Source of the DNA: a virus
Direction: 5' to 3' (one strand)
Virus record (IMG/VR): IMGVR_UViG_3300045988_114440
Span: 37,704-101,703 of that record
Length of the DNA: 64,000 nucleotides
Part shown: positions 4,798 through 64,000 of the stretch, piece by piece
Layout of the letters: each line of letters begins with the position of its first letter
Numbering within the stretch: position 1 is the stretch's first letter
The notes under the pieces: generated by a model
Told to the model about the DNA's origin: nothing
The model's input: only the letters and a program-made list of their open reading frames with translations
Databases searched by the model: none
Program-made: the position numbers and the translations under genes

Positions 4798-4870
4798 GGT
4801 CCTGTAGCTTAGTGGTGAAAGCAGGCGGCTCATAACCGCAAGATCGTGGGTTCAAATCCCTCTGGGACCA
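4798..4870 (+). tRNA. tRNA-Met/fMet (anticodon CAT; Ile-lysidine not excluded)
   Basis: Cloverleaf by eye: acceptor ggtcctg/tgggacc, D-stem gctt/aagc, anticodon loop cuCAUaa, T-loop ttcaaat; CCA not encoded. Confidence 0.7.
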
Positions 4871-4871
4871 C

Positions 4872-4942
4872 TGTCCAATGGTGTAGTGGTAGCACAACAG
4901 ATTTTGGTTCTGTTAGCGGAGGTTCGAATCCTCCTTGGATAA
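4872..4942 (+). tRNA. tRNA-Gln (anticodon TTG)
   Basis: Acceptor tgtccaa/ttggata, anticodon stem acaga/tctgt with loop ttTTGgt, T-arm ggagg-ttcgaat-cctcc; begins 1 nt after the previous tRNA. Confidence 0.7.
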
Positions 4943-5012
4943 CGGTACATATTTTGTGTAAAGTGTTAATTATCTAAGTGTTTGTGGTGTGTGAACATAG
5001 CAAACATTAAAT

Positions 5013-5084
5013 GGCCCATTAGTTTAACGGATAAAACCCTTGAGTCCTAATCAAAAGTTGCCTGTTCGATTCAGGCATGGGCTA
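5013..5084 (+). tRNA. tRNA-Arg (anticodon CCT)
   Basis: Acceptor ggcccat/atgggct, D-stem gttt/aaac, anticodon loop gtCCTaa, T-arm gcctg-ttcgatt-caggc. Confidence 0.6.
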
Positions 5085-5087
5085 CAT

Positions 5088-5159
5088 GGCTTGTTGGATG
5101 AGTGGTTTAGTCAGGGATCTGCAAAATCTCGTAGGGCGGTTCGATCCCGCCACAAGCCT
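5088..5159 (+). tRNA. tRNA-Cys (anticodon GCA)
   Basis: Perfect 7-bp acceptor ggcttgt/acaagcc, anticodon stem gggat/atctc with loop ctGCAaa, T-arm ggcgg-ttcgatc-ccgcc. Confidence 0.65.
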
Positions 5160-5177
5160 CTAAAAAAAAGTAAGACA

Positions 5178-12290: not shown

Positions 12291-12330
12291 GAGTAGGGTT
12301 TTTTCGAATATCGGAGCAGCCCTATTTTTG
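12291..12330 (+). terminator. possible terminator hairpin
   Basis: taggg...cccta stem with long loop, followed by TTTT. Confidence 0.3.
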
Positions 12331-12392
12331 TATCCTACTCTTTCTATTTACGGGTATGATATTCTGAGAGTGAACGGCGAATGTGGACAATA

Positions 12393-12484
12393 TTGGTCTA
12401 AAACGAAACAAAAATAGGAGCGTTCGGATATAATGCCGGTATTTTGTCTATATCATGTCGTTAAAATTGGTCTAAAACGAAACT
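12393..12484. repeat. two 21-nt direct repeats A[AT]ATTGGTCTAAAACGAAAC separated by a roughly 53-nt spacer
   Basis: Copies at 12390-12410 and 12464-12484. Confidence 0.5.
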
Positions 12485-12814
12485 TGAGGCGGTTTTCTGA
12501 CCCAAAATAGGGTGTCGGATGCCGCCTTTTTCATCTCTATGGATTGAAAATTAGGCTTATTGTATTTTTCTTAAAAATGAGGTATGCTTGATTATCAATT
12601 AGTTAGGTTTTATAATCCCCGTATTTTTGGACATACTTATTGTATTTTTTTATTCTATGTGGTGGTTTTTATTAGTAGCTGATCTTTATTTTCTGTCGGT
12701 TGGTATTCGCTCTATGTTGGAGTACGGACCGGATCAGTATAATATTGTAATGGTCTTTTGCTTTTCTTTGTTGGCTTTGATTATAGGTTTAAATATCTAT
12801 CTTGATAGGAGGAG

Positions 12815-12952
12815 CAGGCGGTAGGGCGTGGGCTGAAGGCTCTCTATTCTCTCTATGGAATGATATTATCTCCAAATCCCCCATACTCCATGCCAGAGTA
12901 TAAGCTTGTAGCGCTCTCCGTATGCCGGTAGTGAGGCGGTAGGGCGTGGGTT
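12815..12952. repeat. GC-rich direct repeat AGGCGGTAGGGCGTGGG, two copies about 120 bp apart
   Basis: Copies at about 12816-12832 and 12934-12950, inside a long noncoding stretch. Confidence 0.5.
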
Positions 12953-13023
12953 CTATGCGGAAAGCCGGAGGATTAGCGGGAGTTGGAGAGGGGGAGAGGG
13001 AGGGCACTCCCTACCAACAAAAT

Positions 13024-13140
13024 TCAATAGATAAGCGTTTTAAAACAACATTATGTAGGGTTTTCCCACAAAATTAAGGATTACAGTGCTTTAAAACAGC
13101 ATAATGTGAGTTTATTCTACAAAATTCAATAGGTTGAGAG
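13024..13140. repeat. tandem imperfect repeats of about 45 bp (TTTAAAACA[AG]CAT[TA]ATGT.GGTTT....ACAAAATT)
   Basis: Two adjacent copies; AAAATTCAATAG also recurs at 13019 and 13111. Confidence 0.45.
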
Positions 13141-13194
13141 TTGAAAACTATATTCTATAGATTAGTGGTAATCGGAATGTTTAACAATTAAAAT

Positions 13195-13464
13195 ATGGAT
13201 GGTATGAACGTATATGATTTTGCACCCGATTTAGATTTGAGTAAAGAAGTAGAAGGTTCTATTTTTGGGGTGAAAGGAATAGAAGGCAGTGATGGTATAG
13301 TATATGCTAAGGTAGTTAGCTTTATAGAAGTTAGGGATTACAGTTGTGAGGGGTGTATTTTTAATGATTGTTATAAGGATAAATGTTTATTATCGCGTAG
13401 TGATAGTTGTATAGATGGAGATTGGATTTGTAGGTACGAACAGGCTGCCATAGAGGGGGAGTAG
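13195..13464 (+). CDS. small Cys-rich protein, paralog of the 14655-14879 gene
   Basis: FAPDLDLS... CEGCIFNDCYKDKC aligns with FGPDMDLS... CKDCIFFNNSERC in the 14655-14879 product. Confidence 0.5.
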   Translation: MDGMNVYDFAPDLDLSKEVEGSIFGVKGIEGSDGIVYAKVVSFIEVRDYSCEGCIFNDCYKDKCLLSRSDSCIDGDWICRYEQAAIEGE

Positions 13465-13567
13465 GCGGCGCCTTGGGCTAAGGCCTGCGGTTGTAGGTGG
13501 AACGTAGGTCGGAGCAGAGCCTGGACAGTTTATTGTGGAACGTAAAAAAGAAGGAGGAGATAGCGAT

Positions 13568-13648
13568 ATGAAAAAGGCATTTAAGATATTTTTTATTATG
13601 CTTGTCATAGAAATAGTGCTGATAGCTATTTTAGATGCTATGGCGTAA
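13568..13648 (+). CDS. 26-aa hydrophobic peptide (MKKAFKIFFIMLVIEIVLIAILDAMA)
   Basis: Strong AGGAGG Shine-Dalgarno 8 nt upstream; single predicted transmembrane helix; too short for the ORF track. Confidence 0.3.
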   Translation: MKKAFKIFFIMLVIEIVLIAILDAMA

Positions 13649-13727
13649 GTGAGAAAAATTTCTTCATTAATTTTCTTATGCTTTAGACAAAGTGCTCCCG
13701 TCTGCGAAGATCGGAGCACTTGCTTTA

Positions 13728-13772
13728 TGGGATTCATGGTGCGGTAGGTCGGTTCGATTCCGGCGATCTCAC
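13728..13772 (+). ncRNA. tRNA-like minihelix element
   Basis: 5' tgggatt pairs with 3' gatctca (two G-U pairs), flanking the T-arm gtcgg-TTCGATT-ccggc; discriminator C; 30 nt upstream of the 13802 start. Confidence 0.3.
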
Positions 13773-13801
13773 ACAACATTAAAAACAAAGGAGGAAAGAA
13801 A

Positions 13802-14149
13802 ATGAAAGATGGCATTAAATTGCATCCAGAACACGGATTGAATCCGTCTATAGAAGTCTGCATGATATGTGGCGAAGAGATGGGGATTGCTTTATTAGGG
13901 AATAATATCAAAGGGCAGGCACCGCATCATATATGCACGGGCGGAGTATGTGACAATTGCAAAAAGATAATAGATGACGGAGGCTGTTTTATTATCGAAG
14001 TCGAGGATGGATCAGATCAAAAGAATCCGTATCGTACAGGGAGATATTGTGCGATAAAGAAAGAGGCGGCAAAGAAGATATTTGGACAGGAGCATAATAT
14101 TGTGTACATGGAAAAGTCTGCATACAGTCAAATAATACCACAAAAATAA
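13802..14149 (+). CDS. Cys-rich (zinc-binding) hypothetical protein
   Basis: AAGGAGG Shine-Dalgarno; CxxC...CxxC arrangement (CMICGEE...CDNCKK). Confidence 0.5.
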   Translation: MKDGIKLHPEHGLNPSIEVCMICGEEMGIALLGNNIKGQAPHHICTGGVCDNCKKIIDDGGCFIIEVEDGSDQKNPYRTGRYCAIKKEAAKKIFGQEHNIVYMEKSAYSQIIPQK

Positions 14150-14157
14150 AGAAGGAT

Positions 14158-14481
14158 ATGTTTACAAAAGAAGAGCGATTATTTATTTGGAAAGAAGCAT
14201 ATAGGGAAATCGAAGAATTACGTACTGGAGAATATATATGCGTTGCATTGAAACATGCAGTATTTAAATTTTTTGTAACTCCTAAAAATTCCGGAACTTT
14301 TTATGGGATGCCTTTATATGAACTGGTGAGAACATATTTCCCGGAATTGGAGAAAAAGAAAAGTATGGCTACAGAACCAGAAGGAAAATGGGGTATGTAT
14401 GGATGGTTTGGCTGTATTAGTCCAGAAACGAGGGAGGTGAGGCTAAATATCGTAAAAGACATTATAAAAGAATTAGAATAA
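14158..14481 (+). CDS. hypothetical protein
   Basis: Co-oriented ORF with tight spacing. Confidence 0.45.
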   Translation: MFTKEERLFIWKEAYREIEELRTGEYICVALKHAVFKFFVTPKNSGTFYGMPLYELVRTYFPELEKKKSMATEPEGKWGMYGWFGCISPETREVRLNIVKDIIKELE

Positions 14482-14527
14482 TATTTTTGTTAATCTATTT
14501 TATTCATCAAATTAAGTTTTGGGTTTT

Positions 14528-14634
14528 GGCATGTCGGTTCGTGAGGATAGACATGCCTATTTCTGTATCATAGAGGGATGACGCGGCGTGCCGGTGCGTA
14601 TGTGCCGGTTCTGGTTCGATTCCAGGAATCTCAC
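14528..14634 (+). ncRNA. tRNA-like element: 8-bp hairpin followed by a canonical T-arm and acceptor-like 3' strand
   Basis: ggcatgtc...gacatgcc hairpin; tctgg-TTCGATT-ccagg; 3' aatctca-c is almost identical to the 13765-13772 element; a full cloverleaf was not resolved by eye. Confidence 0.25.
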
Positions 14635-14654
14635 AAACAATAAATCATAATCAT

Positions 14655-14879
14655 ATGGAAGTAATAACATTCGGTCCGGATATGGATTTGTCTTCTAAAA
14701 AAGCAGGAGATGTATTTAGATTAAAATTGTATGGCATAGAGTATGATGTCAAAGTAGTTGGTGACGATGAAGATCCTCTTATGTTCTGCAAAGATTGTAT
14801 ATTTTTTAACAACTCCGAACGGTGTTCACTCTCAGAATCGCAAGACTGGTGCTTAAAAAAAGCAAGTTGTTTACTGTAA
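14655..14879 (+). CDS. small Cys-rich protein, paralog of the 13195-13464 gene
   Basis: Shared FxPDxDLS N-terminus and CxxCIF...C...C spacing. Confidence 0.5.
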   Translation: MEVITFGPDMDLSSKKAGDVFRLKLYGIEYDVKVVGDDEDPLMFCKDCIFFNNSERCSLSESQDWCLKKASCLL

Positions 14880-14887
14880 AATAAGAC

Positions 14888-15079
14888 ATGATGGGGGAAT
14901 TTAATGCGAAAGACGCCAATTTCTTATGGCGTCAAATTGGTAGGATTGATGGGGTGATAGAAACTCTGAACCGTACCGAAGGAGAGATGCCGGAAATTAT
15001 AGCTGGAGTGCTAAAAAGAATAAGAGATGATATAGATAAGTTTGTAGATAATAAAACAAAAGATTATGAGAATATATAA
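14888..15079 (+). CDS. hypothetical small protein
   Basis: Co-oriented ORF. Confidence 0.35.
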   Translation: MMGEFNAKDANFLWRQIGRIDGVIETLNRTEGEMPEIIAGVLKRIRDDIDKFVDNKTKDYENI

Positions 15080-15296
15080 AAATGATATTATAAAGGCGTC
15101 AGCAATAAGCACCGGCGCCGACAGAGGTGTGTTGCTGTGTTCAATAACAGATTCAGGATTCACGTCTATAGCGGGCGTAATATCGGCTGTTAAAGATAAG
15201 TTACCAGGCAAAGATCATAAGAAGATGATTTTTGAAATACGGAATGATGGAAGAAACGAATATGGCAGATATAATAATTGTGGAGGAAAAATATGA
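15066..15296 (+). CDS. hypothetical small protein
   Basis: Co-oriented ORF overlapping its neighbours by a few codons. Confidence 0.35.
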   Translation: MRIYKNDIIKASAISTGADRGVLLCSITDSGFTSIAGVISAVKDKLPGKDHKKMIFEIRNDGRNEYGRYNNCGGKI

Positions 15297-15505
15297 AATA
15301 CAGAGGTCTGTTGCTCCCTATGATATTAGCTGCAATGTGTGGAGATGATGCCTTTATGTTAAATACTAAAAGGGGAAAAGGAATGCAATCTACATATAGA
15401 AGAGAAAAGATTGTCAGAACAGAAAAAGAATTTGATATTAATGGTACTAAAGTAATGGCATACTCAAGAAAGGATGCCATTAAAAGATTAAAACATAAGA
15501 AGTAG
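15278..15505 (+). CDS. hypothetical small protein
   Basis: Co-oriented ORF. Confidence 0.35.
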   Translation: MWRKNMKYRGLLLPMILAAMCGDDAFMLNTKRGKGMQSTYRREKIVRTEKEFDINGTKVMAYSRKDAIKRLKHKK

Positions 15506-15613
15506 AAAACGGATTTTTATGTTAATGTTAGTTTTTCATTTTTATTGAAAGGAGCGCCGACCTGTGAAGGTATGCGCTCTTTGTATTTGTATAATGCATA
15601 AAACAATAATAAT

Positions 15614-15868
15614 ATGACAGATAATAACATAGATGTGAATATCGTACCTGTAAAGAATGGTGCGAAACGTGTTGTGGTATCATATTACCATTATTCACGC
15701 AAGGACAAAAATCATATGAGTTCCCAAACGGATTACGTTTGGGAAACAAAGAATGAAGAAATGTTTAAATACTTTGAGGCCAGGAAGACAAAAGTATTTT
15801 ATAGTCAGATTCGTGCCATGTGTAGATTCTATGGCAAGAAAAATGTACGTAAATACAAAAAGCTATGA
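15614..15868 (+). CDS. hypothetical small protein
   Basis: Co-oriented ORF; stop overlaps the next start. Confidence 0.4.
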   Translation: MTDNNIDVNIVPVKNGAKRVVVSYYHYSRKDKNHMSSQTDYVWETKNEEMFKYFEARKTKVFYSQIRAMCRFYGKKNVRKYKKL

Positions 15869-16674
15869 TATTAAAAACGACAACCAACGAGTTTTGTTTC
15901 ATCAGCGTAAGTTTCTATGAAACAATAGCAGATCCTCGATATTTCTTTGAACAAGATTATGAAGAGATGCCGGAATATGAGGAAGAATCGGATTTTGATT
16001 TTGATTCTTATTGCAATAAGTTTATTCCTTTTGTACAGAAATGGGCGAATGAGGTAAGTGAACGCCTTTACGGATATGGCGTGAATAACATAAAGGTAAC
16101 ATCGGTCGGACATCCGAGAGAATATAATTATGGTACTGATTGGATGAACGTAGAGGTAGAGTTTTGTGATGAATGGAGGCAAAAGATGTTATCTAACATT
16201 GGTAAGATTGTCAATGATGATAAATGCAAGAAGTATGCGGAGGCTAATTACCGGTCGGTACTAGGATACATCTTTTTTGGGCCTGAAGATTTAAAGGAAT
16301 TTGAAGAGGAAATAATAGAAAGAAAGTCAGATTCGGGATATGATGTAACAATATTATTAAATATGTATCTAACTTTGGCTTTTGTAAAAGAATTTGGATT
16401 TAAAGCCGGAGAAGCATGGAGTGAAATAACAGAATATGCTTACGGATGTTTATCGTATTCCGATTTTGCAACAACAGAGATGCTTATACCGGAAGGTTCG
16501 GAGCATTTATTCAAAGACATTTACACGGCAAAGGCCGACGAATTATATCATCATGTCCTGGATAAATTCGGATGGGCGTGGCGTGATCCGAAATATAAGT
16601 CAGAAACAGAATTATGCGCGATGCTAAAGTGGGCAAAAGAAAAAGGCTTGACCATTGAAGAGTTAAGTATTTAA
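15865..16674 (+). CDS. hypothetical acidic protein (269 aa)
   Basis: Long co-oriented ORF. Confidence 0.5.
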   Translation: MILKTTTNEFCFISVSFYETIADPRYFFEQDYEEMPEYEEESDFDFDSYCNKFIPFVQKWANEVSERLYGYGVNNIKVTSVGHPREYNYGTDWMNVEVEFCDEWRQKMLSNIGKIVNDDKCKKYAEANYRSVLGYIFFGPEDLKEFEEEIIERKSDSGYDVTILLNMYLTLAFVKEFGFKAGEAWSEITEYAYGCLSYSDFATTEMLIPEGSEHLFKDIYTAKADELYHHVLDKFGWAWRDPKYKSETELCAMLKWAKEKGLTIEELSI

Positions 16675-16701
16675 TTGTTAAACATAAGGCAGTAGTGGTG
16701 C

Positions 16702-16986
16702 GTGAGTATAGGTGCTGCCGTTAAAATATTTTATAAGATGAAAAAAGAAGAGATTCAAACTATTTTATACACAATCAAAGAAGGAGACAGTATTAAAATC
16801 AAAGTACAAGACAAAAGTGAAGAGATAAGACTGCGGGATCATGTAAGAAGAGTACAGAAATACGGATACAGGTTTTGTTTGTCTCATTTACATGATGGAA
16901 TTTTCTATCTGGAGAAGTTGAAAGAAGGGGATAAGGATAAATACTATAGAGTAATAAACAGAGGAAATGGAAAGACCGGAGTATAA
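16702..16986 (+). CDS. hypothetical protein
   Basis: Co-oriented ORF. Confidence 0.4.
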   Translation: MSIGAAVKIFYKMKKEEIQTILYTIKEGDSIKIKVQDKSEEIRLRDHVRRVQKYGYRFCLSHLHDGIFYLEKLKEGDKDKYYRVINRGNGKTGV

Positions 16987-17260
16987 TAAGCTACGCAAAA
17001 TGGCTAAGACTACTCCAGGTCTGATAGTGGACGAGGTGCAAAACATGATGCGTGTATCGCTGTATGATAATGGGGAACTTAAGAAGGTGGTAGTAGTAAT
17101 GAAATGCGATTCTTTTTTACAGTCAAAAAGTAACATAGAAAAGATAATGTTATTATCATCTTCTATAGAAGATAGAAAAAACAAAGAAAAAAATAAAACA
17201 AAATCAGAAAATGAACAGAATAACAAAAATAAGAGAAGAAATAGGAGGAAAACAGGTTGA
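16967..17260 (+). CDS. hypothetical protein with K/N/R-rich tail
   Basis: Co-oriented ORF. Confidence 0.4.
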   Translation: MERPEYNKLRKMAKTTPGLIVDEVQNMMRVSLYDNGELKKVVVVMKCDSFLQSKSNIEKIMLLSSSIEDRKNKEKNKTKSENEQNNKNKRRNRRKTG

Positions 17261-53989: not shown

Positions 53990-54127
53990 ATGAGGTATTT
54001 TGTTTTATTGATGGCACTTGTGTTATCATCATGTTCGCATGATGATAATCAGGTTAATGACGGATGGGTTATATATGATCTATCTCCTTTAAATGGTGAA
54101 CGTGTGATATATACCGATTATTATTGA
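53990..54127 (+). CDS. 45-aa lipoprotein with Bacteroidetes-type surface-export signal
   Basis: MRYFVLLMALVLSSC lipobox followed by SHDD (negatively charged +2 to +4 residues). Confidence 0.45.
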   Translation: MRYFVLLMALVLSSCSHDDNQVNDGWVIYDLSPLNGERVIYTDYY

Positions 54128-54130
54128 AAG

Positions 54131-54200
54131 TGTTTGTAAACACGTTTAACAAACAAATAAAGGATTTTCTTTGTTTTAGAAAAACAAAAGGGTATTTTTG
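54131..54200 (+). promoter_or_regulatory. inverted-repeat operator plus Bacteroidetes-type promoter (TTTG N19 TAttTTTG) for the Panacea gene
   Basis: IR TGTTTGTAAAC-ac-GTTTAACAAACA at 54131-54155; TTTG at 54170-54173; TATTTTTG at 54193-54200, 20 nt before ATG 54220. Confidence 0.4.
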
Positions 54201-54219
54201 TCATCAAAAAAATAGAAAA

Positions 54220-54714
54220 ATGGAAACGAGCCGAAAACTTCAAAAGATAGACTCATTAGTCTTATGTGAATATATTGTTAAGCATTATGGCTCTATGTCT
54301 CACTTAAAATTGCAAAAATTGTTGTTTTATTGTGACGCATACCATCTTGCTTACTTTGGTACAGAATTGGTTTCTGATAAATTTCAAGCGTGGGTTCATG
54401 GGCCGGTTAGCCGTAAAGTGTACGACAGTTTAAAAGACAAATCAATTTTATACTCAGAATTGTCCTATAGTTATGCTCCCGGTGATATAGATGTTGACGC
54501 TGAGTTTGCCAAATTAACAACAGACCAGAAAGATTTAGTGAGTACTGTTTTGGAAAATCTTTCAGAATGGAATCAGTTTCAGCTTGAAACAGCAATACAT
54601 AGAGAGTTGCCTTGGATACAAGCGCGTGTAGGTTATGGCCCAGCTGATAGATGCGAAGTTTATATCTCCAAAGAAACAACAATGAAGTTTTATAAATCAG
54701 AGTTAAATGCCTAA
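54220..54714 (+). CDS. Panacea-domain (DUF4065, SocA-like antitoxin domain) protein
   Basis: HLKLQKLLFYCDAYHLAYFG...FQAWVHGPVSRKVY matches the DUF4065 core; start set at ATG 54220 rather than the track TTG 54124. Confidence 0.55.
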   Translation: METSRKLQKIDSLVLCEYIVKHYGSMSHLKLQKLLFYCDAYHLAYFGTELVSDKFQAWVHGPVSRKVYDSLKDKSILYSELSYSYAPGDIDVDAEFAKLTTDQKDLVSTVLENLSEWNQFQLETAIHRELPWIQARVGYGPADRCEVYISKETTMKFYKSELNA

Positions 54715-55276: not shown

Positions 55277-55323
55277 AACAATTATGGCACCAATAGTTCT
55301 TGGTGCCATAATTGTTTTTTATT
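55277..55323. terminator. strong rho-independent terminator at the convergence point (17-bp perfect stem)
   Basis: aacaattatggcaccaa-tagttc-ttggtgccataattgtt followed by TTTTTTATTT on the + strand. Confidence 0.7.
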
Positions 55324-55532: not shown

Positions 55533-58500
55533 CTATTTGTAGCTAACATCATCGTCTCCTTCCGAATCAGGAGTGGCGCCGATGAAGAACATCATTGACT
55601 TGTTGTTCGTCTGCTGCCACCAATTATAGGCGCGCGCTACGTCTTCCGGCGTCTTGATATTATACCATTGTTTGATAAACGTCTGTTTGGCGAGTTGCCT
55701 AAATAACTTAGACTCTCCCTTGTATGTACCGGATGTTACTTTATCAAGTGAATAATTCCTAAGATCGGTAAGATCCTTCAGCTTCCGTCCCATGACGAAC
55801 GGATCGTTAATGATATCTACCACGTTAAGCTCCATAATAAACGGCATCTGTGAAGCTATTTCGTTTATGGTTCTGAATCCGACATAGGATCCAAATTGAG
55901 TAAGCCAACTTTCTTCGTTTTCATCATCATCACGCCATCCGGCAAGAAGCATAGATACGGCCTGCATGATAAGGAACGTGCCGGCATAGACACTGAGACG
56001 TTTGAGATTGGTTTTTTCTACCTCATTCATATTGTCTTTATTTTCGTTCCAGGCATCTATGATGTTTTTCATACCAGACTCGGAAGCTAAGCTAAATGTT
56101 TTGGCTATCATATTCTTTAACGTAATTGACAGTCCTTCCTCTTCTTGCATTGTCTGGAAATTGAAGCCACGTCTTTTCCACAGACGTTGAGCCGCCAGCA
56201 CCAACCATCCTCGGTGGGCGGTCATGAACCTGGCTATCCAGTTGCGCGATGCGGCAGTTCGGTTTTCTTCATTCAAAGATCCGTTACATATCTGCGACAA
56301 GCTACGAACTTGATTTCTGGTTATAGCCATCTGGGTTTCAACTTCCTCAACAGTAACACCTGATCCGGGCTTTACAACCACCTTCCCATCCACGACATCT
56401 ACCATACTCCATAAAGTACGATCTTTTAATGCATTCCATTCTCTTTTTATGGTACTCTGTTCTTTATTACGTTCTTTTTCCATCTTGAAATCTTGGAACG
56501 TGTAGAACCGACCTTTGTAATAACGAACATTGTCCATAGTAGCAATCATAACCTGCGGATCAAGAGGGTAGTTCAGGATTTCCATAAAAGCATACATAGG
56601 CGAACGCATTAAGGTCCTGGCCACTCTATTGTATCCGGCACCATACATACGATTTCGGATATTGAATATCCCCATTCTCTCACCTATGACATATAATTTG
56701 CTTTTCCTATCTATGTCTCCGGTTTCTGCTATACAAGATGGAGCAAGGCGTGAAAATTCAGCCGATGCGTATTTAAGGGAGTCTTTGCTTATATACTGTC
56801 CTACGGCAGATTCCATGATGAGGTTGATATGACCTGTTAAGGCGCCGGTAGCTGCCACAAACGGAGACAGTGCCAAGTTCATGACCGACATAAATCTTTC
56901 AACAGCCATCATAATTCTTGTAAGGTCTACCGTATATCCTCCGATGTTCACCGTAAGTTTTTTGGTGTTCATCCTAATGCCATAATAATGATCGTTGAAG
57001 AAGTCCCTGAACATCTGATATGCTTGGGTTGCTTCAGCCTTTTTACCACCTTCAAATTGTTTATTCAGTAACATCTGCTCCAGTCCTTGAGCGAGCTCTA
57101 TAGACTTCTGCTTTTCGTTGTATAACGATGACTGCATCATAAGCATAGAATAAGAGTAGCCAAAATCGTGAGATACATCATCTTGGTTCTCCAATTCATA
57201 TATGTAGTATTTGGGTATAGACCTAAGTCTGTCTTCCGGATCATATACTTCCCCTTGTCTGGTTTTACCGTATAAAGAATCGTCTACTCTGTCCAGGCAC
57301 AGATCTGATACAAAATTACGAACCGTATTTTTGAAGTTAATACCCAATCCTTCTATACGTTCTATATCTTGTTTTGATATCTGTGGAATAGCATACAGGT
57401 TCGGGCTCTGCTCTTTGTATAGATCAAGTGATTGTCTTTTTATTTCCTTGAGTTTTTGAATCATATTCCACTGATCTACGTTTTTAGTAGCAACTTCATT
57501 ACCGTCAGCATCATACTTGATACCAAAGTCATTGAAATACGATTCGTCACGATACAGGCTTTTCTTAGGCATGCGATGACCATACCCATGATCTTTTACA
57601 TAATCAGGATTACGGCCGCTATTTTCGGCTTCAGATTCAGCCACCCATGCCCTTGCAGGGTCGAAAGAAAGGTACGATATGTCCATGCCATAATCTTGGG
57701 TGGATGTTCCGTTCTGTACGTCTTTAACCATCTGCGCCACATCTATCTCACCTCGACCAATTTTGTCGATCATAGCCGCATATCCGGTAGGTGCCATGCG
57801 TTTATAGTATGAAAAGACCTGGCTCCTGGCAAATTCATTAACAATAGCATTAGCCTCTTCTATACCTGATTCTCTTGTGTTATTTAAAAACAAGCTGGCC
57901 ATTTTAGCATTGACGGCATTCCTAAAATCTCTACCGTCTAATTCTTTGCTTATTCCAAGCTTTTCTGACAAGTAGTTGGTTTCAGATACGGTAAACAGAT
58001 ACCGGTTATCAGCAGCTTTGAATAACTTATCCCTTAAGGCTTGAATCCTTTTTGCTTTCTTCGCCGTAGTATGACGTTGTACGAACTTCCATTCCACTTC
58101 CTTGGAGTCAGCAAGAGCATTTAAATAAGACTGATTTACTTCGTTTTCAGCCTTACTGCTTTTAGTAAGGTACTTATCAATATCTTCAAGACCCACCATC
58201 TTAGCATAATCTATTAAGATAGCGTAATCGGCTTCAATAGCTTCAGATGCGGCCCTAAAAGCATCTCTTTCAGATGAGGTAAATGTCGCTTCATTAATTT
58301 CTCCGATATCAGCCACATCGCGATTGTTTCCGATTATTTCCTTTATAATAGCCTTATTTTTTTCTATATCTTTTACAATCGAATCCACGTCAGTTGCATC
58401 TCTATCACTTGTCGTAGAACTAATGATGTCTTGTGCCATTTTAAGATACGAAGCCTTGTTATTTGATTCGGTACGCGCCGATTGTTCTGATTCTACGTCA

Positions 58501-61500
58501 TTCCAAAACCGATCGTTGAATGACAGGTGCCCCCCCAACATAAGTGTCTTCAGCGCAGCTTCTCCTCCTGACTCGTTCTGAATCGTTCTCAATTTTTGCA
58601 AAAACGATTCTGATACGACATTAGTGACATTATTTGATTCCTTTCTCCAAACTTCATTTATAGCTTGTATTTCTTTGGCCATCTTAAGTTGGTCGCCGGT
58701 TTTTTCCACTCTCCTGGTTCCTACATATATGTATTCTGAAGCTGCTTCCTTACGTTGTTTACGAAGCAGTCCTTCTTCTTCGTAGTTACTACTCTTATAG
58801 TAAGCAACCTCATCAAAATTACCATTGCTATCAATAAAAGGCTGCCTCAATATCCGCTTCTGCCGAGAAAGAGCATTAAGGTATTCTTTGGTTGTTTGAG
58901 AAACCGGATGCCCTAATTCTTCTTCGGCCTTTTTGTATATGGATTCCATTCTTGTGGCATAACTTTCACTAAATTCCAGTTCTGAATTTTCAGCATCCCA
59001 CTTCTCCATCTGTTCTGTATAAATCTTTTCCTGCTCGATGGTAAAAATATCGGTATTAACCCTATCGGACGACGGTTTAAATTTAGCGTTCTCGGTAACC
59101 GTATTTCCGTCCTTGTCAACTACTTCTCTTTTAAATACGTAATTACGGTTATTGTCAACCACATCATTGATTTCTTCTTCTGATATCTCTATGTTCATGG
59201 CGGTCGCAAACGCTCGCATCTGCGCCAGCTTCTTATTACGATCGTATTTAGCCATATCAAGGGCACTACGAAGGTAATTAGAAGTTTTGCCGTCTACTTT
59301 CTGAAGCAGTTTTTCAAATTCAGATTTGTTAAAACCATGCTTTTTCGCATATGCCAGGAAATCGGATATGGCGGGCTGGGCATTCACCATCGCATTGTAA
59401 TTGTCTTTGGCAATCATAGCTCCAAGAGCGTTATTGAACGGGCTGGAAGAATGCTCTAATATACCGAACCACCTACTTATCCAAGATACATCGTGTTGAA
59501 CCTTGTCAAAAAATTCTTTTACTCTCTTTACCTTATCTGCCGGCACATGAAGTTCGTTCATTAACTTATCAAGCAACGTGCTTTCATCAAGGTCTTGTAC
59601 TGATTTAATATCAGACTGAATACCATTGATGTCTGCAATGACGGTATTGATCCTATTTGTATAATCCTGCTTTTCACGTTCATCAAATTCGGTACTTCTG
59701 TTACGGATATATCCTCGAAGATCGTTCATGATCGGAAGAACCTGATTGTTGATAATATCTACGTTCTTTCGATCATTGGTATTGAAGTGAAGCTTGCCGT
59801 CTTTGGTATCACCATGAAGGATGGTGTTCACCACATTGCTTAAGTATCTGACCTGAGCTTCGGCTGTAGAGATCATGCTGTTCATGGCAGCCGCCATCTC
59901 ATTCTTGTCTATTTCGGTCTCTACCTTATTTATCTTATCTTCTATGGTCTTAAGCTGAGCAAGGGTCATAGACGTAGTTACAGCCCTATCAGAGCTTATC
60001 TGACGTAAGTCTCTTAACGTTTTTCTCAATGCCCTGATTTTAGACTCAAGAAACTTGTTCTTGTTCATAGAAGAAAGGGAGTATAATGTAAAGTCATTAT
60101 CCTTCAAAAGAGAAGTATCAAATCCTTTATCTATGTCGGTAATAGCAAGATCACGAATATTTTTAATAACGTTATTCAAATCCTGTCTTTGGGTTGATAA
60201 AGCTGATTTAAGCCAGTTTACAATTCCAGAGAGAAGCTGCCGGACGCGCCCCAGGAAGGAGGTGGGCTCTACCGGCGCCTGTGCTGTGCCGGTCTGCATC
60301 TCCCTGGCGAGGATCTTTCCAAGAATTTCTCTCCTAACAGCATTATCAAGCTCAGCTCCTTCATATACCTTACCGTATGTATTATAATACTGACCTGCAT
60401 ACTGATTCCATTCTTCAGTGCCTTCTACATCTTGCAGAATAGCCTCAACAGCATTCTGATCTCTGTACGCCTCTACGAGGAAGTGGGCTGTTTCTTCTAC
60501 TAAATCAGATAAAGTAGCATCTTCGCCAACTGCTATTACGTTATTGGCAATATCCGCCAATGCCTTAGCAGAAGGTTCGTGCCCGTATTTGGTTTGGTAC
60601 TTCTCTATATAATCGGTCATACCAACGACACTAACGCCCAGCGTTTTCAGTATCTCAACAATAGAATTTCGTTGATTACGTTCCTCTTGGCTATAATCCG
60701 ATACGATCTTAGCTTTAGTATCAGCATAAAGATCATTGTCTTCTAATATGAATGAAACTACAAGCGCATCAAAATGATCGTACTTGGCGTCCAATTCATT
60801 GTATCTTCCAGACTTAAGATCGCTCTTTATCTGCTCCTTGCTAACTCTTTCTGTTCCCCCGGTGGCGAGTCTCATAGTTACCTTACTATTATCCAATGAA
60901 TTTATGGTTATCATACCCTGGTCGTTCATGGAAACATCGGAACCAAAATGATTACGGAGCTCAGTGTAGGATAAGGCTGAATTGAAAAGTCTAATTTGTC
61001 CTGTATGTCCTTCTCCTGTAATATAATAGCTTCTTGTTTCCGGATCGAATATCTTGGATCCGGACAAAAGACCTTTCTTTATAAGGTAGTTAATTATACC
61101 GCCTTTTGTTGATAAAGAAGTAGAAGCAGAAGCGGTCATGACCGGTATAAAAGACTTGGGATTATTAAGAACATACTTTCCAGCCTTGTAAGTAATGTCT
61201 GCCACTCCATCCACGGTAGATTCTTGAACGATGCCTGATAAGAATCCTATTCTAATATCATTCCCTCCAGAGCGAAGAGCTTCTCCGTAATCTTCAAATA
61301 ATTGATTACGATCATTCATAAAAAACAAACGAGGTTCTCCAGTCTGATACGTTACACCCACAGGATTAGAATCTGTTTCTGGTAGCTCTTCTGGACTAAA
61401 TATCTTAAGACCGTCTTTTATGACCATATAATCAACACCCTTATCCTGTACCATAGATACGGGAGTGAAGTCTGAAGATATAGCATCTTGTAGATACTGG

Positions 61501-61955
61501 CCGGCGTCTATTCCCGGTCCTTCCGGTATGGAAATACCGGAAGGAACCATAGCATCCACCAACATAATATTATCACCCAGATCCTGGCTATAGAATCCAA
61601 AGCCTGATTCTTGAATCCCATAAGGTGCATCTGATTTCGACACAAGAATAGGGTTGCTCATCTTAGAAGCCTTATCCAGCACCCTTTCTCTATAGGCTTC
61701 CGGAATAAGGTCGATATTGGATTTTACCTTATTGTAAGCCTGTTTGTTGATAGGCACATTCCTTCTCCAGTCACCAAAAGCCTTTAAGAACTTATTAGAA
61801 AATACGGTTTTAAAAACAGTAGTAGCCCGTTCCCTATTTTCCATAAGAGGAATAGATGCTATCTTATCGAATAACATAGACCTGTCCCCTGATCTGGTAG
61901 AGACAGAAACAACTTTCTTTTTATTATCTCTTTTAATAATACACGTTGATACCAT
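55533..61955 (-). CDS. giant protein (2140 aa) of unknown function; possibly virion/tail-associated (tape-measure- or ejection-protein-like)
   Basis: Single uninterrupted 6.4-kb ORF; long alpha-helical K/E/N-rich middle; hydrophobic segments near the C-terminus; no NTPase or polymerase motifs recognised. Confidence 0.7.
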   Translation of the reverse strand: MVSTCIIKRDNKKKVVSVSTRSGDRSMLFDKIASIPLMENRERATTVFKTVFSNKFLKAFGDWRRNVPINKQAYNKVKSNIDLIPEAYRERVLDKASKMSNPILVSKSDAPYGIQESGFGFYSQDLGDNIMLVDAMVPSGISIPEGPGIDAGQYLQDAISSDFTPVSMVQDKGVDYMVIKDGLKIFSPEELPETDSNPVGVTYQTGEPRLFFMNDRNQLFEDYGEALRSGGNDIRIGFLSGIVQESTVDGVADITYKAGKYVLNNPKSFIPVMTASASTSLSTKGGIINYLIKKGLLSGSKIFDPETRSYYITGEGHTGQIRLFNSALSYTELRNHFGSDVSMNDQGMITINSLDNSKVTMRLATGGTERVSKEQIKSDLKSGRYNELDAKYDHFDALVVSFILEDNDLYADTKAKIVSDYSQEERNQRNSIVEILKTLGVSVVGMTDYIEKYQTKYGHEPSAKALADIANNVIAVGEDATLSDLVEETAHFLVEAYRDQNAVEAILQDVEGTEEWNQYAGQYYNTYGKVYEGAELDNAVRREILGKILAREMQTGTAQAPVEPTSFLGRVRQLLSGIVNWLKSALSTQRQDLNNVIKNIRDLAITDIDKGFDTSLLKDNDFTLYSLSSMNKNKFLESKIRALRKTLRDLRQISSDRAVTTSMTLAQLKTIEDKINKVETEIDKNEMAAAMNSMISTAEAQVRYLSNVVNTILHGDTKDGKLHFNTNDRKNVDIINNQVLPIMNDLRGYIRNRSTEFDEREKQDYTNRINTVIADINGIQSDIKSVQDLDESTLLDKLMNELHVPADKVKRVKEFFDKVQHDVSWISRWFGILEHSSSPFNNALGAMIAKDNYNAMVNAQPAISDFLAYAKKHGFNKSEFEKLLQKVDGKTSNYLRSALDMAKYDRNKKLAQMRAFATAMNIEISEEEINDVVDNNRNYVFKREVVDKDGNTVTENAKFKPSSDRVNTDIFTIEQEKIYTEQMEKWDAENSELEFSESYATRMESIYKKAEEELGHPVSQTTKEYLNALSRQKRILRQPFIDSNGNFDEVAYYKSSNYEEEGLLRKQRKEAASEYIYVGTRRVEKTGDQLKMAKEIQAINEVWRKESNNVTNVVSESFLQKLRTIQNESGGEAALKTLMLGGHLSFNDRFWNDVESEQSARTESNNKASYLKMAQDIISSTTSDRDATDVDSIVKDIEKNKAIIKEIIGNNRDVADIGEINEATFTSSERDAFRAASEAIEADYAILIDYAKMVGLEDIDKYLTKSSKAENEVNQSYLNALADSKEVEWKFVQRHTTAKKAKRIQALRDKLFKAADNRYLFTVSETNYLSEKLGISKELDGRDFRNAVNAKMASLFLNNTRESGIEEANAIVNEFARSQVFSYYKRMAPTGYAAMIDKIGRGEIDVAQMVKDVQNGTSTQDYGMDISYLSFDPARAWVAESEAENSGRNPDYVKDHGYGHRMPKKSLYRDESYFNDFGIKYDADGNEVATKNVDQWNMIQKLKEIKRQSLDLYKEQSPNLYAIPQISKQDIERIEGLGINFKNTVRNFVSDLCLDRVDDSLYGKTRQGEVYDPEDRLRSIPKYYIYELENQDDVSHDFGYSYSMLMMQSSLYNEKQKSIELAQGLEQMLLNKQFEGGKKAEATQAYQMFRDFFNDHYYGIRMNTKKLTVNIGGYTVDLTRIMMAVERFMSVMNLALSPFVAATGALTGHINLIMESAVGQYISKDSLKYASAEFSRLAPSCIAETGDIDRKSKLYVIGERMGIFNIRNRMYGAGYNRVARTLMRSPMYAFMEILNYPLDPQVMIATMDNVRYYKGRFYTFQDFKMEKERNKEQSTIKREWNALKDRTLWSMVDVVDGKVVVKPGSGVTVEEVETQMAITRNQVRSLSQICNGSLNEENRTAASRNWIARFMTAHRGWLVLAAQRLWKRRGFNFQTMQEEEGLSITLKNMIAKTFSLASESGMKNIIDAWNENKDNMNEVEKTNLKRLSVYAGTFLIMQAVSMLLAGWRDDDENEESWLTQFGSYVGFRTINEIASQMPFIMELNVVDIINDPFVMGRKLKDLTDLRNYSLDKVTSGTYKGESKLFRQLAKQTFIKQWYNIKTPEDVARAYNWWQQTNNKSMMFFIGATPDSEGDDDVSYK

Positions 61956-62096
61956 GATAAAACATTTTTGTTATGAGACAAAGGTAGCTAAAAATCAAGC
62001 ATATCATAAAAAATTAAGCCATCTAACTTCTCAGTCTGATGGCTTAAAAATAATATGAAAAAAAATTATAATCTGACGCAAATCGTCAAGTTACGC

Positions 62097-62420
62097 TTAT
62101 GCATTGTATTTGTACCCATTTCTATGAATAAACCTTCCTGATTCGAACCTTTCCACATCATCCGGTCCAATAGGTCCGCAGTCTTCCCTCCTTGCCTCAT
62201 ACCACAGCCCAGGCTTACGGAGCCGGCAGGTTATGACGTATTTAAAACAGTTGTGAGTAAAATGGAATACGGAGCCTACTGGGAAATACCTGGTAGTTTG
62301 AAACACTATTCTTTTTCGTTTAGTATCAAACACTATATCTCCTACTACCTTAGTTACGTAATAGCTTCTGCCATTTAACGTTTCATCTGTTTGTGGTATC
62401 CAATAATAACCTTTTGTCAT
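62097..62420 (-). CDS. hypothetical protein
   Basis: Co-oriented with the giant gene, tightly spaced. Confidence 0.45.
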   Translation of the reverse strand: MTKGYYWIPQTDETLNGRSYYVTKVVGDIVFDTKRKRIVFQTTRYFPVGSVFHFTHNCFKYVITCRLRKPGLWYEARREDCGPIGPDDVERFESGRFIHRNGYKYNA

Positions 62421-62449
62421 GCCACAAATATATGAAAAAGTCGGATAAC

Positions 62450-62770
62450 TTACGTACCCGACTCTATTATTTGTTTAAACAGACCAATTCCGTCTATTAT
62501 AATATGACCGCTTCGCATACGACCATTATTAGGATTATAAAGAAAATTAAAACCACTTTCTTTTTCTTGTCTTTCAAAAGAACTGATATCCTTTCCTCTA
62601 CAAGCTCTTCCAAAAGCCTTCTTGAACAACTTTCCTCTGAAGGTCTTGACAAGGTTCTTGGTAGCGTTATTGCCGGCTCTTACCATTGCTTTCCTTGCCT
62701 GGTCCTCCGAGACAAAACTGCTTCGGAAAATATACGATGTTGCTGCTTGTATATCTTGCTTGGTGATCAT
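62450..62770 (-). CDS. hypothetical protein
   Basis: 4-nt overlap with its upstream neighbour. Confidence 0.45.
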   Translation of the reverse strand: MITKQDIQAATSYIFRSSFVSEDQARKAMVRAGNNATKNLVKTFRGKLFKKAFGRACRGKDISSFERQEKESGFNFLYNPNNGRMRSGHIIIDGIGLFKQIIESGT

Positions 62771-63117
62771 ATGACAAACATTTCTTTCAAGGTACTGATA
62801 TTTATTGTGTATATCATTTTCATTTCATCTTTATCATATACGTCAAAAAAGGATTTACTTAAGTCCTTTGAATCTTCGCTCAATTGAATTATGCAATTAC
62901 CAGTATAAACCTTAAGCTTGTAATTATCGGAATATATATCATGCATGGTTTCAAATGTCTCAATTAAATTTTCAACAAGTGCTCTGTTTAATGAAAAAGA
63001 TTCTTTACCATCACCTTTAAATGTGATATGATCTAAATCCCTGTTGTCAAATTCATACTTTAATTGATTGCCGTCCATCATATCATAAAATATTGACTTT
63101 CTGATTATAAATCCCAT
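62767..63117 (-). CDS. hypothetical protein
   Basis: Co-oriented ORF. Confidence 0.45.
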   Translation of the reverse strand: MGFIIRKSIFYDMMDGNQLKYEFDNRDLDHITFKGDGKESFSLNRALVENLIETFETMHDIYSDNYKLKVYTGNCIIQLSEDSKDLSKSFFDVYDKDEMKMIYTINISTLKEMFVI

Positions 63118-63135
63118 ATTGTTTTATTTTTTTAG

Positions 63136-63441
63136 TTAATATAAATCTTCTGAATACAATTGTTTTCTAATAGCATTCCTATCTACTACCATCTCCTGAT
63201 TATTGTTCTTAACAAGCTCAGACGCTTCCTCTCTTGTTAGAAACCGGTTCTTGCTTGTCAAAAATCCTTGAATACTACGGTTTTTATGGGCTATGCCGTA
63301 TGCAGCAAGTTGCGATATTATGGAACAGTGTCTCAATCCACAAAATACGGTTCCGGATGGTATATTGGTGGGCTGATGAGGACGCTTCTTGCCGTCCTGC
63401 ACCCAGATGGCCGCGCATATTACTATTTCTTTATTATACAT
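63136..63441 (-). CDS. hypothetical protein
   Basis: Co-oriented ORF. Confidence 0.45.
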   Translation of the reverse strand: MYNKEIVICAAIWVQDGKKRPHQPTNIPSGTVFCGLRHCSIISQLAAYGIAHKNRSIQGFLTSKNRFLTREEASELVKNNNQEMVVDRNAIRKQLYSEDLY

Positions 63442-63478
63442 GATACGTTTTTCTATTAAATTTATTAAATCCGTTCAT

Positions 63479-63931
63479 TTACTTTAATATAATCGGATGC
63501 CTCTTCCCTCTAATGAGTTTAAACTTTTTGCGTGAAACATCTTTTGAATTTTCTCCGTTGAAATCCCTGATATTGAAACTCCCTGATTTTCTCCTTCCAT
63601 AAACAAAGAATATTTTATTGTTATACAACACTTTATCAAACAACCTAAAACCGAAAACCTCAAAAGGAGCTTGATTGTTTTTCTTCTTCCCCCCTTTTAA
63701 AATTTTCATTTTATGTATTTGTCTATTATGTCTACGAATTAAACGTTTTAAATATTGACGTTCGATTCGTTTCGCATTAATATTCTTAGAAATGACAAAC
63801 GCGTCGGATGTATGGGATTTTTCAATCCCATATTTAATCCGATTATGTTTCGTAATGTAACCAAACGTCATAAAAACTCTGTCGTATCTGGATTTTAACT
63901 CTTCATACAACCTCCATTTCATAATTCCCAT
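63479..63931 (-). CDS. hypothetical basic (K/R-rich) protein
   Basis: Co-oriented ORF near the window edge; the true start could lie upstream. Confidence 0.45.
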   Translation of the reverse strand: MGIMKWRLYEELKSRYDRVFMTFGYITKHNRIKYGIEKSHTSDAFVISKNINAKRIERQYLKRLIRRHNRQIHKMKILKGGKKKNNQAPFEVFGFRLFDKVLYNNKIFFVYGRRKSGSFNIRDFNGENSKDVSRKKFKLIRGKRHPIILK

Positions 63932-64000
63932 TACGGCTGCGTCGCGAAGCGACTTGCCTCTTCTGATCTTTAAATCTATATTACCTTTATGGTATTCTTT

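Follow-up and report, generated by a model that had tools for sequence, protein, structure and literature searches.

Crassviruses possess three giant capsid cargo proteins, which in Cellulophaga phage phi14:2 are encoded by a conserved giant-gene block (gp67-gp66-gp65) where gp66 is the virion RNA polymerase. The product of gp65 has been named 'RNA polymerase associated protein', and proteins of the same family have been detected in virions by MS/MS (phi4:1 gp035, phi14:2 g065 and PhicrAss001 gp49). The virion structure of PhicrAss001 has been solved and displays a short tail barrel (PMC10172136), and gp49 was assigned to the capsid cargo zone (Bayfield et al., 2023; PMC10172136). Middle-stage transcription has also been reported for gp49, an observation that concerns this orthologue only. 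The transcription gene block was described in all groups except Epsilon (Yutin et al., 2021). A 2026 paper on N4 explicitly raised the possibility of a parallel in function with the three RNAP-associated proteins of crassviruses.

A giant gene of the gp65/gp49 family

We analyzed a window of 64,000 nucleotides (IMG/VR record IMGVR_UViG_3300045988_114440, positions 37,704 to 101,703) belonging to a large 'epsilon' crAss-like gut phage. Its giant gene (Table 1) codes for a protein with a calculated mass of 243.5 kDa. At ~55-56 kb of the window the signs of GC skew and AT skew are reversed, and all other long ORFs lie on the plus strand, so that the giant gene and its small neighbours form the only long minus-strand block, as a preliminary description of this DNA had stated. 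The ORF and the five small minus-strand ORFs upstream of it, also noted there, are all present in our ORF calls. Its report that the P-loop, DxDGD and HNH motifs are missing was equally accurate: regular-expression searches of the 2140-aa protein found no P-loop, DxDGD/DxDxD, HExxH, CxxC or loose HNH pattern, Pfam gave sub-threshold noise only and no significant domain over the whole protein, and no enzyme domain was recognised with Pfam, NCBIfam or PADLOC. Searches of the PDB by sequence and by profile returned no significant match for the giant protein, and word-indexed protein searches with C-terminal and N-terminal sub-alignments recovered only a few fragments.

The giant protein belongs to an already known, functionally unsolved family. 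It is matched over most of its length by PHROG 37651 'virion structural protein' (E 2.2e-76, aa 263-2090), which corresponds to the gp65/gp49 cargo family, and by tblastn to the structural proteins of phi4:1 and phi17:2 (87% coverage, E 5e-67). A family HMM matches crAss001 gp49 (E 8.8e-70), cr52_1 gp35 (E 4.8e-61) and phi14:2 gp65 (E 1.1e-25), and matches neither crAss001 gp47 and gp50 nor phi14:2 gp66 and gp67. BLAST pairs gp49 with gp65, gp50 with gp66, and gp47 with gp67, phi4:1 gp38 and csAssE-Sib 85400-92026. On the basis of profile HMM, BLAST and the gene order described below, we identify the giant protein as the orthologue of phi14:2 gp65, PhicrAss001 gp49 and phi4:1 gp35, and its gene as the third of the conserved giant-gene block.

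Homology of the window protein with phi14:2 gp65 and PhicrAss001 gp49 extends through the middle region and the entire C-terminal domain, and with gp49 only also through the EExxH domain; the proteins share a Cys-containing N-terminal start (MSCK, MAKKC and MVSTC), and their genes likewise close the giant-gene block. Unlike them, the window protein is 700-800 aa longer, carries a payload slot and then an alpha/beta core N-terminal to the EExxH domain, and is encoded at a distance of several kb from the rest of the block, across an accessory island; in PhicrAss001 the gene is on the opposite strand. The closest cultured relative is gp035 of phi4:1 and phi17:2 (22% identity over 87% of the length), which shares the N-terminal module (E about 1e-18) and a matching gene order, gp38 (gp67-like) - gp37 - gp36 - gp35, but is shorter (1914 aa), has a minimal slot, comes from phages of a marine host and has no island between gp37 and gp35.

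Gene order in epsilon phages

In csAssE-Sib, a 2208-aa gp67-like protein is followed by proteins of 192 aa and 752 aa, the island, the giant gene and the convergent replication genes, with a terminase-to-tail block upstream of the giant gene on the same strand. The giant gene comes at the end of the block after gp67-like and RNAP-type genes, as expected of the gp65/gp49 family, and it holds this closing position also in phi4:1, cr52_1, phi14:2 and two other epsilon contigs. The gene order had been regarded as atypical in the preliminary description. Small genes do adjoin the giant gene, but the oddity disappears when csAssE-Sib is considered, where the head and tail genes are found upstream on the giant gene's strand, the small neighbours being the near edge of a variable island located between the RNAP-like gene and the giant gene.

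Placing the window gene with gp65/gp49 shows that at least two of the three giant genes, the gp65-like and the gp67-like, are retained in epsilon-group phages. The 752-aa RNAP candidate of csAssE-Sib has no DxDxD, and the designation 'RNAP-associated' may therefore not carry over to the window phage. A DFDKD sequence in phi4:1 gp38 was considered as a hidden catalytic motif and rejected, since it is not conserved in csAssE-Sib, crAss001 gp47 or phi14:2 gp67.

Domain organization of the giant protein

Table 1. Features of the giant gene and its surroundings (window coordinates; aa, residues of the giant protein).
Feature	Position	Strand	Description
Giant gene	55533..61955	-	ORF, ATG start, 2140 aa; gp65/gp49/gp35 orthologue
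N-terminal module, aa 1-66	61758..61955	-	M..C.I...S.LF...A...F..FGDW; beta-hairpin and three helices in AF2 model
Variable payload slot, aa 67-205	61341..61757	-	139-aa alpha/beta domain, no recognisable family
Conserved alpha/beta core, aa 206-429	60669..61340	-	GEPRLFF... and INYLIKKG.LSG motifs; alignment, AF2
Most conserved domain, aa 430-560	60276..60668	-	Highest conservation in the giant protein
EExxH motif	60483-60497	-	Within aa 430-560
Middle region, aa 561-1399	57759..60275	-	Slightly enriched in K/E/N; presumably helical
C-terminal conserved domain, aa 1400-2140	55536..57758	-	Mostly alpha-helical, small hairpins
Hydrophobic helix, aa 1987-2007	55935..55997	-	Flanks: N-[LIM]-[KR]-R and acidic DDDE run
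TACCTTTG box	61979..61986	-	Fits Bacteroidota -7 promoter consensus TAnnTTTG; 31 nt before ATG
Two tandem hairpins	62008..62089	-	Each followed by U-run; stems 62073-62089 and 62014-62047
Five small ORFs	62097-62420, 62450-62770, 62767-63117, 63136-63441, 63479-63931	-	107, 106, 116, 101 and 150 aa
17-bp perfect hairpin with T-run	55277..55316		Convergent gap between plus-strand replication block and giant gene

The alpha/beta core is conserved in all 32 aligned relatives and is modelled with high confidence (pLDDT 80-94). The domain that follows it contains ten invariant residues (D468, E487, E488, H491, F492, Y523, Y527, E543, G546 and K547) and has the lowest model confidence (pLDDT 55-80). 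Its EExxH motif is present in crAss001 gp49 too (PEEFAHFAIEA), whereas the corresponding position of phi14:2 gp65 is occupied by a canonical HEIMH, in an hhalign match that is not significant (E 0.38). A paralogous relationship between this EExxH core and the HExxH domains ('ILHExxAHKG') found in the slots of relatives was also considered, and rejected (hhalign E 0.11).

Concerning the long K/E/N-rich helical centre of the preliminary description, the enrichment is real, if modest (8.8/8.8/8.1% K/E/N in aa 621-1400 versus 6.6/6.1/5.8% in the N-terminal third), and the helical character is deduced. The middle region aligns with the helical middle of crAss001 gp49, and its weak PDB profile matches are to designed helical repeat proteins only. 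The 740-aa C-terminal domain defines a family with >3,000 cluster representatives. Hydrophobic C-terminal segments had also been noted, and there are indeed two, aa 1688-1706 and 1987-2007. The maximum 19-residue hydropathy of the latter is 1.5-2.3 in 32 of 32 relatives, although the sequence itself is variable, making this helix a candidate membrane anchor, which could instead simply be buried in a globular domain. Foldseek searches of the PDB with the model of aa 1-640 gave nothing at E<=1e-3, and no solved structure resembling either modelled part of the giant protein was found.

A variable slot next to a shared N-terminal module

The ~66-aa N-terminal module is also found on phi14:2 gp66 and on the 752-aa "RNAP" of csAssE-Sib. 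This module, which the proven virion polymerase also bears, is a candidate packaging or ejection signal.

The slot that follows has a confident AF2 model in the window protein (pLDDT about 80-90), with no Pfam match at E<=10 and no PADLOC match. Across 202 relatives, the spacing between the N-terminal module and the EExxH domain, slot included, ranges from 148 to 1293 aa, and clustering by sequence divides the slot segments of ≥110 aa into 45 groups. Among 26 representatives, four carry ART-PolyVal (best E 9.8e-19), three Kinase-PolyVal (E 3.5e-36) and three LPD23, and further slots hold a DUF6782 metallopeptidase, DUF3293, Methyltransf_23, GNAT or a diphtheria-toxin/PARP-like domain. An assignment of the window's own slot to the ART domains was set aside as speculation (hhalign E 0.075 and 0.44, with no Pfam match at E<=10).

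The presence of toxin-type enzyme domains in the N-proximal slot of many relatives suggests that the giant-protein scaffold delivers effectors into Bacteroidota hosts. We tentatively extend this to the whole gp65/gp49 family, which may possibly be a general effector-delivery frame: a packed and ejected scaffold with one freely swapped N-proximal slot, where the N-terminal module would be the common capsid/tail signal and the window's slot an injected effector, perhaps with a degenerate ART fold. If this were true, the 139-aa domain would represent an undescribed injected effector.

Possible function and alternative explanations

The giant protein is very probably the epsilon-group member of the gp65/gp49 orthologues, one of the three giant capsid cargo proteins of crassviruses. 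We extend cargo status to it from the virion data of its orthologues: gp65 and gp49 are virion-packaged, whereas the window protein is known here from sequence. Homology in this way supports the 'ejected pilot protein' of the preliminary description, through the virion MS/MS of orthologues and the location of gp49 in the capsid cargo zone, and we firmly favour annotating the window gene as an internal virion (cargo) protein, neither tape measure nor polymerase.

A plausible course of events can be drawn by analogy with podovirus ejection proteins (T7 gp14/15/16, P22 gp7/16/20, N4 gp51/gp52 and both terminal regions of the N4 vRNAP), which are similarly large, mostly helical and stored in the capsid, with a hydrophobic segment potentially crossing a membrane; the resemblance is one of function only, with neither sequence nor fold similarity detected. 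The giant gene would have a host-type promoter of its own, active in the middle or late period, and the capsid cargo zone would receive several copies of the protein. During infection, these may be partly unfolded and extruded via the portal and tail, before or with the DNA. The C-terminal domain and its hydrophobic helix would then anchor at the envelope, within the ejection complex, while the N-terminal part with the slot payload would arrive in the cytoplasm alongside the virion RNA polymerase, a protein bearing the same N-terminal module. The payload would be the 139-aa domain here, while relatives would carry ADP-ribosyltransferase, kinase, metallopeptidase, methyltransferase or acetyltransferase domains in its place. 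For ejection, membrane anchoring and a possible role in transcription alike, we argue by analogy with the T7, P22 and N4 proteins.

Alternatively, the giant protein might be mainly a 'polyvalent protein' of the kind described from phages and conjugative elements (Iyer et al., 2017), an injected multi-effector that, like P1 DarB or T4 Alt, would counter host defences or subvert the host. The slot would then be an effector that has diverged, possibly an ADP-ribosyltransferase that is inactivated or atypical. The family resembles polyvalent proteins in being giant and virion-linked, in being encoded among late/virion genes (as judged from the csAssE-Sib gene order) and in offering one position to many unrelated enzyme domains, those of its slot including Pfam families of the polyvalent study itself (ART-PolyVal, Kinase-PolyVal and LPD23). 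ART folds, moreover, recur among the weak structural matches of the 1-640 model (Certhrax, tankyrase, PARP15, ParT, AcrF11 and MbcT), and 'GFGFYSQD' and 'DYMVIKD' look similar, by eye, to the ART-payload motifs GwGlYFTD and DEYxV. However, two or more disparate enzymatic domains occur in homologues and not in the window protein, which is mostly conserved scaffold with no recognisable enzyme domain; a P1 DarB-type N6-adenine methyltransferase and helicase are absent from it (no P-loop, no such Pfam match). The DarB-like host takeover considered in the preliminary description is supported for the family, by the enzyme domains in homologues' slots, and not for the window protein, whose slot has no Pfam match; as a description of this protein, we regard the polyvalent reading as rather unlikely. 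We found no mention of the scaffold, nor the words 'crAss' or 'Cellulophaga', in the main text of the polyvalent-protein study (Iyer, Burroughs, Anand, de Souza and Aravind, 2017).

The remaining explanations assign a single activity to the protein. A zincin-like metalloprotease has been proposed for phi14:2 gp65, and could serve to process the other cargo proteins (such as by activation of the virion RNAP) or to cleave peptidoglycan. For the window protein we judge this improbable: the HExxH reported for gp65 orthologues is absent from the window protein, where the first metal-binding His would be Glu, hhalign relates its domain significantly neither to the HEIMH of gp65 nor to the bona fide HExxH domains of relatives' slots, Pfam finds no peptidase, and the model is at its least confident there. 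It is very improbable that the protein contributes to the virion RNA polymerase, either as a subunit or as its catalytic part. It shares with gp66 an N-terminal module of ~40-66 aa, to which the sequence similarity is confined; the catalytic DFDxD resides in gp66 and gp50, which form another orthologous group that the family HMM does not match, and 6VR4 was not found by PDB sequence or profile search. A catalytic RNAP identity is rejected outright by this separate orthologous group and the lack of DxDxD. Finally, size, an inferred helical centre and hydrophobic C-terminal segments had brought to mind a tail tape-measure protein, a reading to which we give almost no credence. The orthologues come from Crassvirales and relatives, with the short tail barrel of PhicrAss001 and gp49 in the capsid cargo zone; the gene lies between small accessory genes on one side and the convergent replication block on the other, without flanking tail chaperone or distal-tail genes, and searches of Pfam and PHROGs gave no tape-measure domain for it.

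Candidate transcription signals and the small-gene island

The TACCTTTG box lies upstream of the giant gene, and all 70 related strains have a TAnnTTTG box at -31/-30. TAnnTTTG is not enriched in the whole window (69 found versus 71 expected), which rules it out as a general promoter signal, so that the case for TACCTTTG rests on its position and conservation. Strains are 84-92% identical in the 100 nt immediately preceding the ATG, and farther upstream their sequences are unrelated. The tandem hairpins fold with an MFE of -28.7 kcal/mol (z = -5.0; none of 200 shuffles folds as well), and this terminator-like element would separate the giant gene from the small-gene island. With hairpins, U-runs and a conserved box between it and the small genes, the giant gene looks like a transcription unit of its own; it is the last gene on its strand, as the preliminary description had it, but probably not the last of a unit shared with the small genes.

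The five small ORFs are the proximal edge of a hypervariable accessory island, outside the giant-protein module. They have no Pfam or PADLOC match, and a single PHROG match, to a family of unknown function. In 71 strains, the island between the RNAP-like gene and the giant gene measures 1.5-9.4 kb, and in other epsilon genomes it carries different genes, such as Dam, or RT plus HNH.

Identity of the giant gene

The preliminary description of the giant ORF, which starts with ATG and encodes 2140 codons (calculated mass 243.5 kDa), is accurate. It lies in the only long minus-strand block (GC and AT skew flip sign at ~55-56 kb, and all other long ORFs are on the plus strand), is preceded by five small ORFs, and has two hydrophobic stretches near the C-terminus. 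Regular expressions for P-loop, DxDGD, DxDxD, HExxH, a loose HNH pattern and CxxC found none in the protein, upholding the absences reported for P-loop, DxDGD and HNH. The centre, described as K/E/N-rich, is indeed enriched, but modestly, when the middle third of the protein is measured (coordinates in the table below).

Features of the window and of the giant protein
Feature	Position	Strand	Remark
tRNA genes	4798-5160	+	four, clustered
SocA/Panacea antitoxin-like domain ORF	54124-54714	+	Pfam PF13274, E 2.1e-20
Perfect 17-bp hairpin and T-run	55277-55316		in a 370-nt gap between convergent genes
Giant gene	55533-61955	-	2140 aa
Hypervariable accessory island	61956-64000	-	conserved right-hand boundary: two hairpins and TACCTTTG box
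Five small ORFs	62097-63931	-	107/106/116/101/150 aa
N-terminal module	aa 1-66		invariant C5, V18, S26, A44
Payload slot	aa 67-205		AF2 model confident, pLDDT about 80-90
Conserved alpha/beta core	aa 206-429		pLDDT 80-94
EExxH domain	aa 430-560
Middle region	aa 561-1399		aligned to helical middle of gp49
C-terminal domain	aa 1400-2140

Among deposited phages, a tblastn search identified csAssE-Sib (OR575929), a 151-kb genome from human gut, whose counterpart is 97.7% identical in amino acids, the gene region being ~95% identical in DNA. This phage was assigned to the epsilon crAss-like group (PMC11054128). Its record carries a 20-bp deletion at gene nt 810-829 (window 61127-61146; ~20810 in the csAssE-Sib locus L001) that breaks the gene, annotated merely as 'structural protein', into ORFs of 282 aa and 1885 aa. 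The intact 2140-aa form is present in the window and in a very abundant 99%-identical protein cluster (13,405 member sequences).

Pfam, NCBIfam and PDB sequence searches with the giant protein gave no significant match, and PHROGs assigned aa 263-2090 to PHROG 37651, 'virion structural protein' (E 2.2e-76). A family profile built from 32 diverse homologues (alignment A1) matched gp49 of PhicrAss001 (E 8.8e-70), gp35 of cr52_1 (E 4.8e-61) and gp65 of phi14:2 (E 1.1e-25), and matched neither PhicrAss001 gp47 and gp50 nor phi14:2 gp66 and gp67. Pairwise BLAST of the giant proteins resolved three orthologous groups: the window's protein with phi14:2 gp65, PhicrAss001 gp49, phi4:1 gp35 and cr52_1 gp35; the polymerases gp66 and gp50; and gp67 with gp47, phi4:1 gp38 and csAssE-Sib 85400-92026. 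Virion MS/MS is the recorded annotation basis for phi4:1 gp035 and phi14:2 g065, and Bayfield et al. found gp49 in PhicrAss001 virions, placed it in the capsid cargo zone and had it leave the capsid by ejection, partly unfolded (PMC10172136). This grouping, together with the virion evidence for orthologues, makes the giant gene a member of an already known family whose giant proteins are packaged. Yutin et al. 2021 described the transcription gene block in every group but Epsilon. Profile hits show that Epsilon keeps both gp65-like and gp67-like genes, in diverged form, which is a modestly new point.

The first guess of an ejected protein was thus correct in kind, the homology being to a virion-packaged family. 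The tape-measure alternative is contradicted by this family membership and by the assignment of the orthologue gp49 to the capsid cargo zone. A catalytic polymerase is contradicted too, since the protein falls outside the gp66/gp50 group and has no DxDxD. The family was already known, and a close relative of the phage is already deposited.

The labels of gp49 conflict among papers: it is named the predicted catalytic subunit in PMC8375218, where gp49 and gp50 are middle genes, and the crystallised protein is described as a gp49 homologue in PMC10172136. BLAST and motif make gp50 (DFDVD) the orthologue of gp66 (DFDID), and gp49 that of gp65. Read with the standard bacterial code, the cr52_1 gp35 gene (12295-17001 of its locus) has 26 in-frame stops, which agrees with the reassignment of stop codons known from some crAss-like phages.

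Modular architecture

The N-terminal module, predicted by AF2 as a beta-hairpin and three helices, also starts a 752-aa csAssE-Sib protein (hhalign probability 94%, E 1.4e-7; HMM E 1.8e-8). It also matches cr52_1 gp35, both in an HMM search and through a BLAST alignment of gp35 with that 752-aa protein (64 aa aligned, 47% identical). Similarity is weaker to the N-terminus of phi14:2 gp66 (MACKIEN...FIAKFGDWIND...NEDGEPLL), proven by experiment to be the virion polymerase (hhalign E 5.9e-4; iterated HMM E 6e-4 in a set of 1312 sequences, gp66 not yet being included). A module shared with the virion polymerase, as these alignments indicate, is a new if modest observation.

The distance from this module to the EExxH domain ranges from 148 to 1293 aa in 202 relatives. 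Slot segments no shorter than 110 aa form 45 sequence clusters. Pfam, run on 26 slot representatives, found ART-PolyVal in four (best E 9.8e-19), Kinase-PolyVal in three (E 3.5e-36) and LPD23 in three, along with DUF3293, DUF6782 metallopeptidase, Methyltransf_23, GNAT and a diphtheria-toxin/PARP-like domain. The 'polyvalent protein' study of Iyer et al. 2017, whose main text contains neither 'crAss' nor 'Cellulophaga', is the origin of several of these families. Judged from sequence, the gp65/gp49 family has a swappable effector slot, again a modest new observation. These enzyme domains support well, for the family, a polyvalent anti-defence effector, a reading that complements the cargo role and does not replace it; the window's own slot, however, has no Pfam match even at E<=10 and no PADLOC match. 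The early suggestion of a DarB-like host-takeover or anti-restriction protein therefore agrees with the family's effector domains but is not supported for this member. That the slot is a degenerate ART fold is a weak proposal: it shows motif resemblance and weak structural matches to Certhrax, tankyrase, PARP15, ParT, AcrF11 and MbcT, but hhalign E values are 0.075 and 0.44 and the catalytic His is missing.

Putative promoter region and variable island

Between the small ORFs and the giant gene lie 141 nt that fold as two hairpins, both with a trailing U-run (MFE -28.7 kcal/mol, z = -5.0). Within this stretch, 31 nt upstream of the ATG, stands TACCTTTG, which fits TAnnTTTG, the Bacteroidota -7 promoter consensus. 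The box is at -31/-30 in 70/70 strains; the first 100 nt 5' of the gene are 84-92% identical between strains, and sequences beyond are unrelated. As TAnnTTTG is not enriched across the window as a whole, the case for a promoter rests on box position and conservation. A host-type promoter would fit phi14:2, whose middle and late genes are transcribed by host polymerase. The hairpin between the convergent genes is probably a terminator shared by both strands.

In csAssE-Sib, a gp67-like gene (2208 aa) is followed by a 192-aa ORF, the 752-aa ORF and ~8 kb of small genes, among them a repressor, an antirepressor and one with DUF2829; then come the giant gene and, convergent with it, the replication block. 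Terminase, portal, capsid and ring genes lie far upstream on the same strand, which answers the question raised earlier on gene order outside the window. Across 71 IMG/VR strains with 92-100% identical 752-aa genes, the spacer from this gene to the giant gene varies from 1.5 to 9.4 kb, and in other genomes of the epsilon group this position is occupied by Dam, or by RT plus HNH. The five small genes are thus the near end of a hypervariable accessory island and stand outside the giant-gene module; their placement in an island with a conserved boundary is modestly new. In one epsilon genome (locus L008, 699-3556), a reverse transcriptase gene (RVT_1) and an RRXRR/HNH nuclease gene adjoin the giant gene on its upstream side, with TnpB/OrfB_IS605 next to it downstream.

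The 752-aa ORF was called an RNA polymerase by its authors (HHpred 95% probability, 46% coverage; PMC11054128). This published epsilon 'DNA-dependent RNA polymerase' (OR575929 92650-94908; L001 9566-11824) lacks DxDxD and, outside the N-terminal module, is similar only to phi4:1 gp37 (517 aa), which lacks it too.

Proposed mechanism

Homology, synteny and modular build are established in the window and its relatives, virion packaging and middle-stage expression for the orthologues only. The giant gene would be transcribed from its own host-type promoter, and several copies of the protein would be loaded into the capsid; during infection these would be pushed out by way of portal and tail. The C-terminal domain would then lie at the envelope as part of an ejection complex, the N-terminal part and slot domain reaching the cytoplasm next to the virion polymerase bearing the same N-terminal module, a candidate capsid-targeting or ejection-leader signal. 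Sequence and fold comparison with N4, T7 and P22 proteins gave no link; a 2026 N4 study left the roles of three crassvirus RNAP-associated proteins unresolved and raised a possible parallel to N4 ejection proteins (PMC13434306).

Elsewhere in the window, the SocA/Panacea-like ORF is the final sizeable plus-strand ORF before the convergent junction, and the tRNA genes are Met-CAT, Gln-TTG, Arg-CCT and Cys-GCA.
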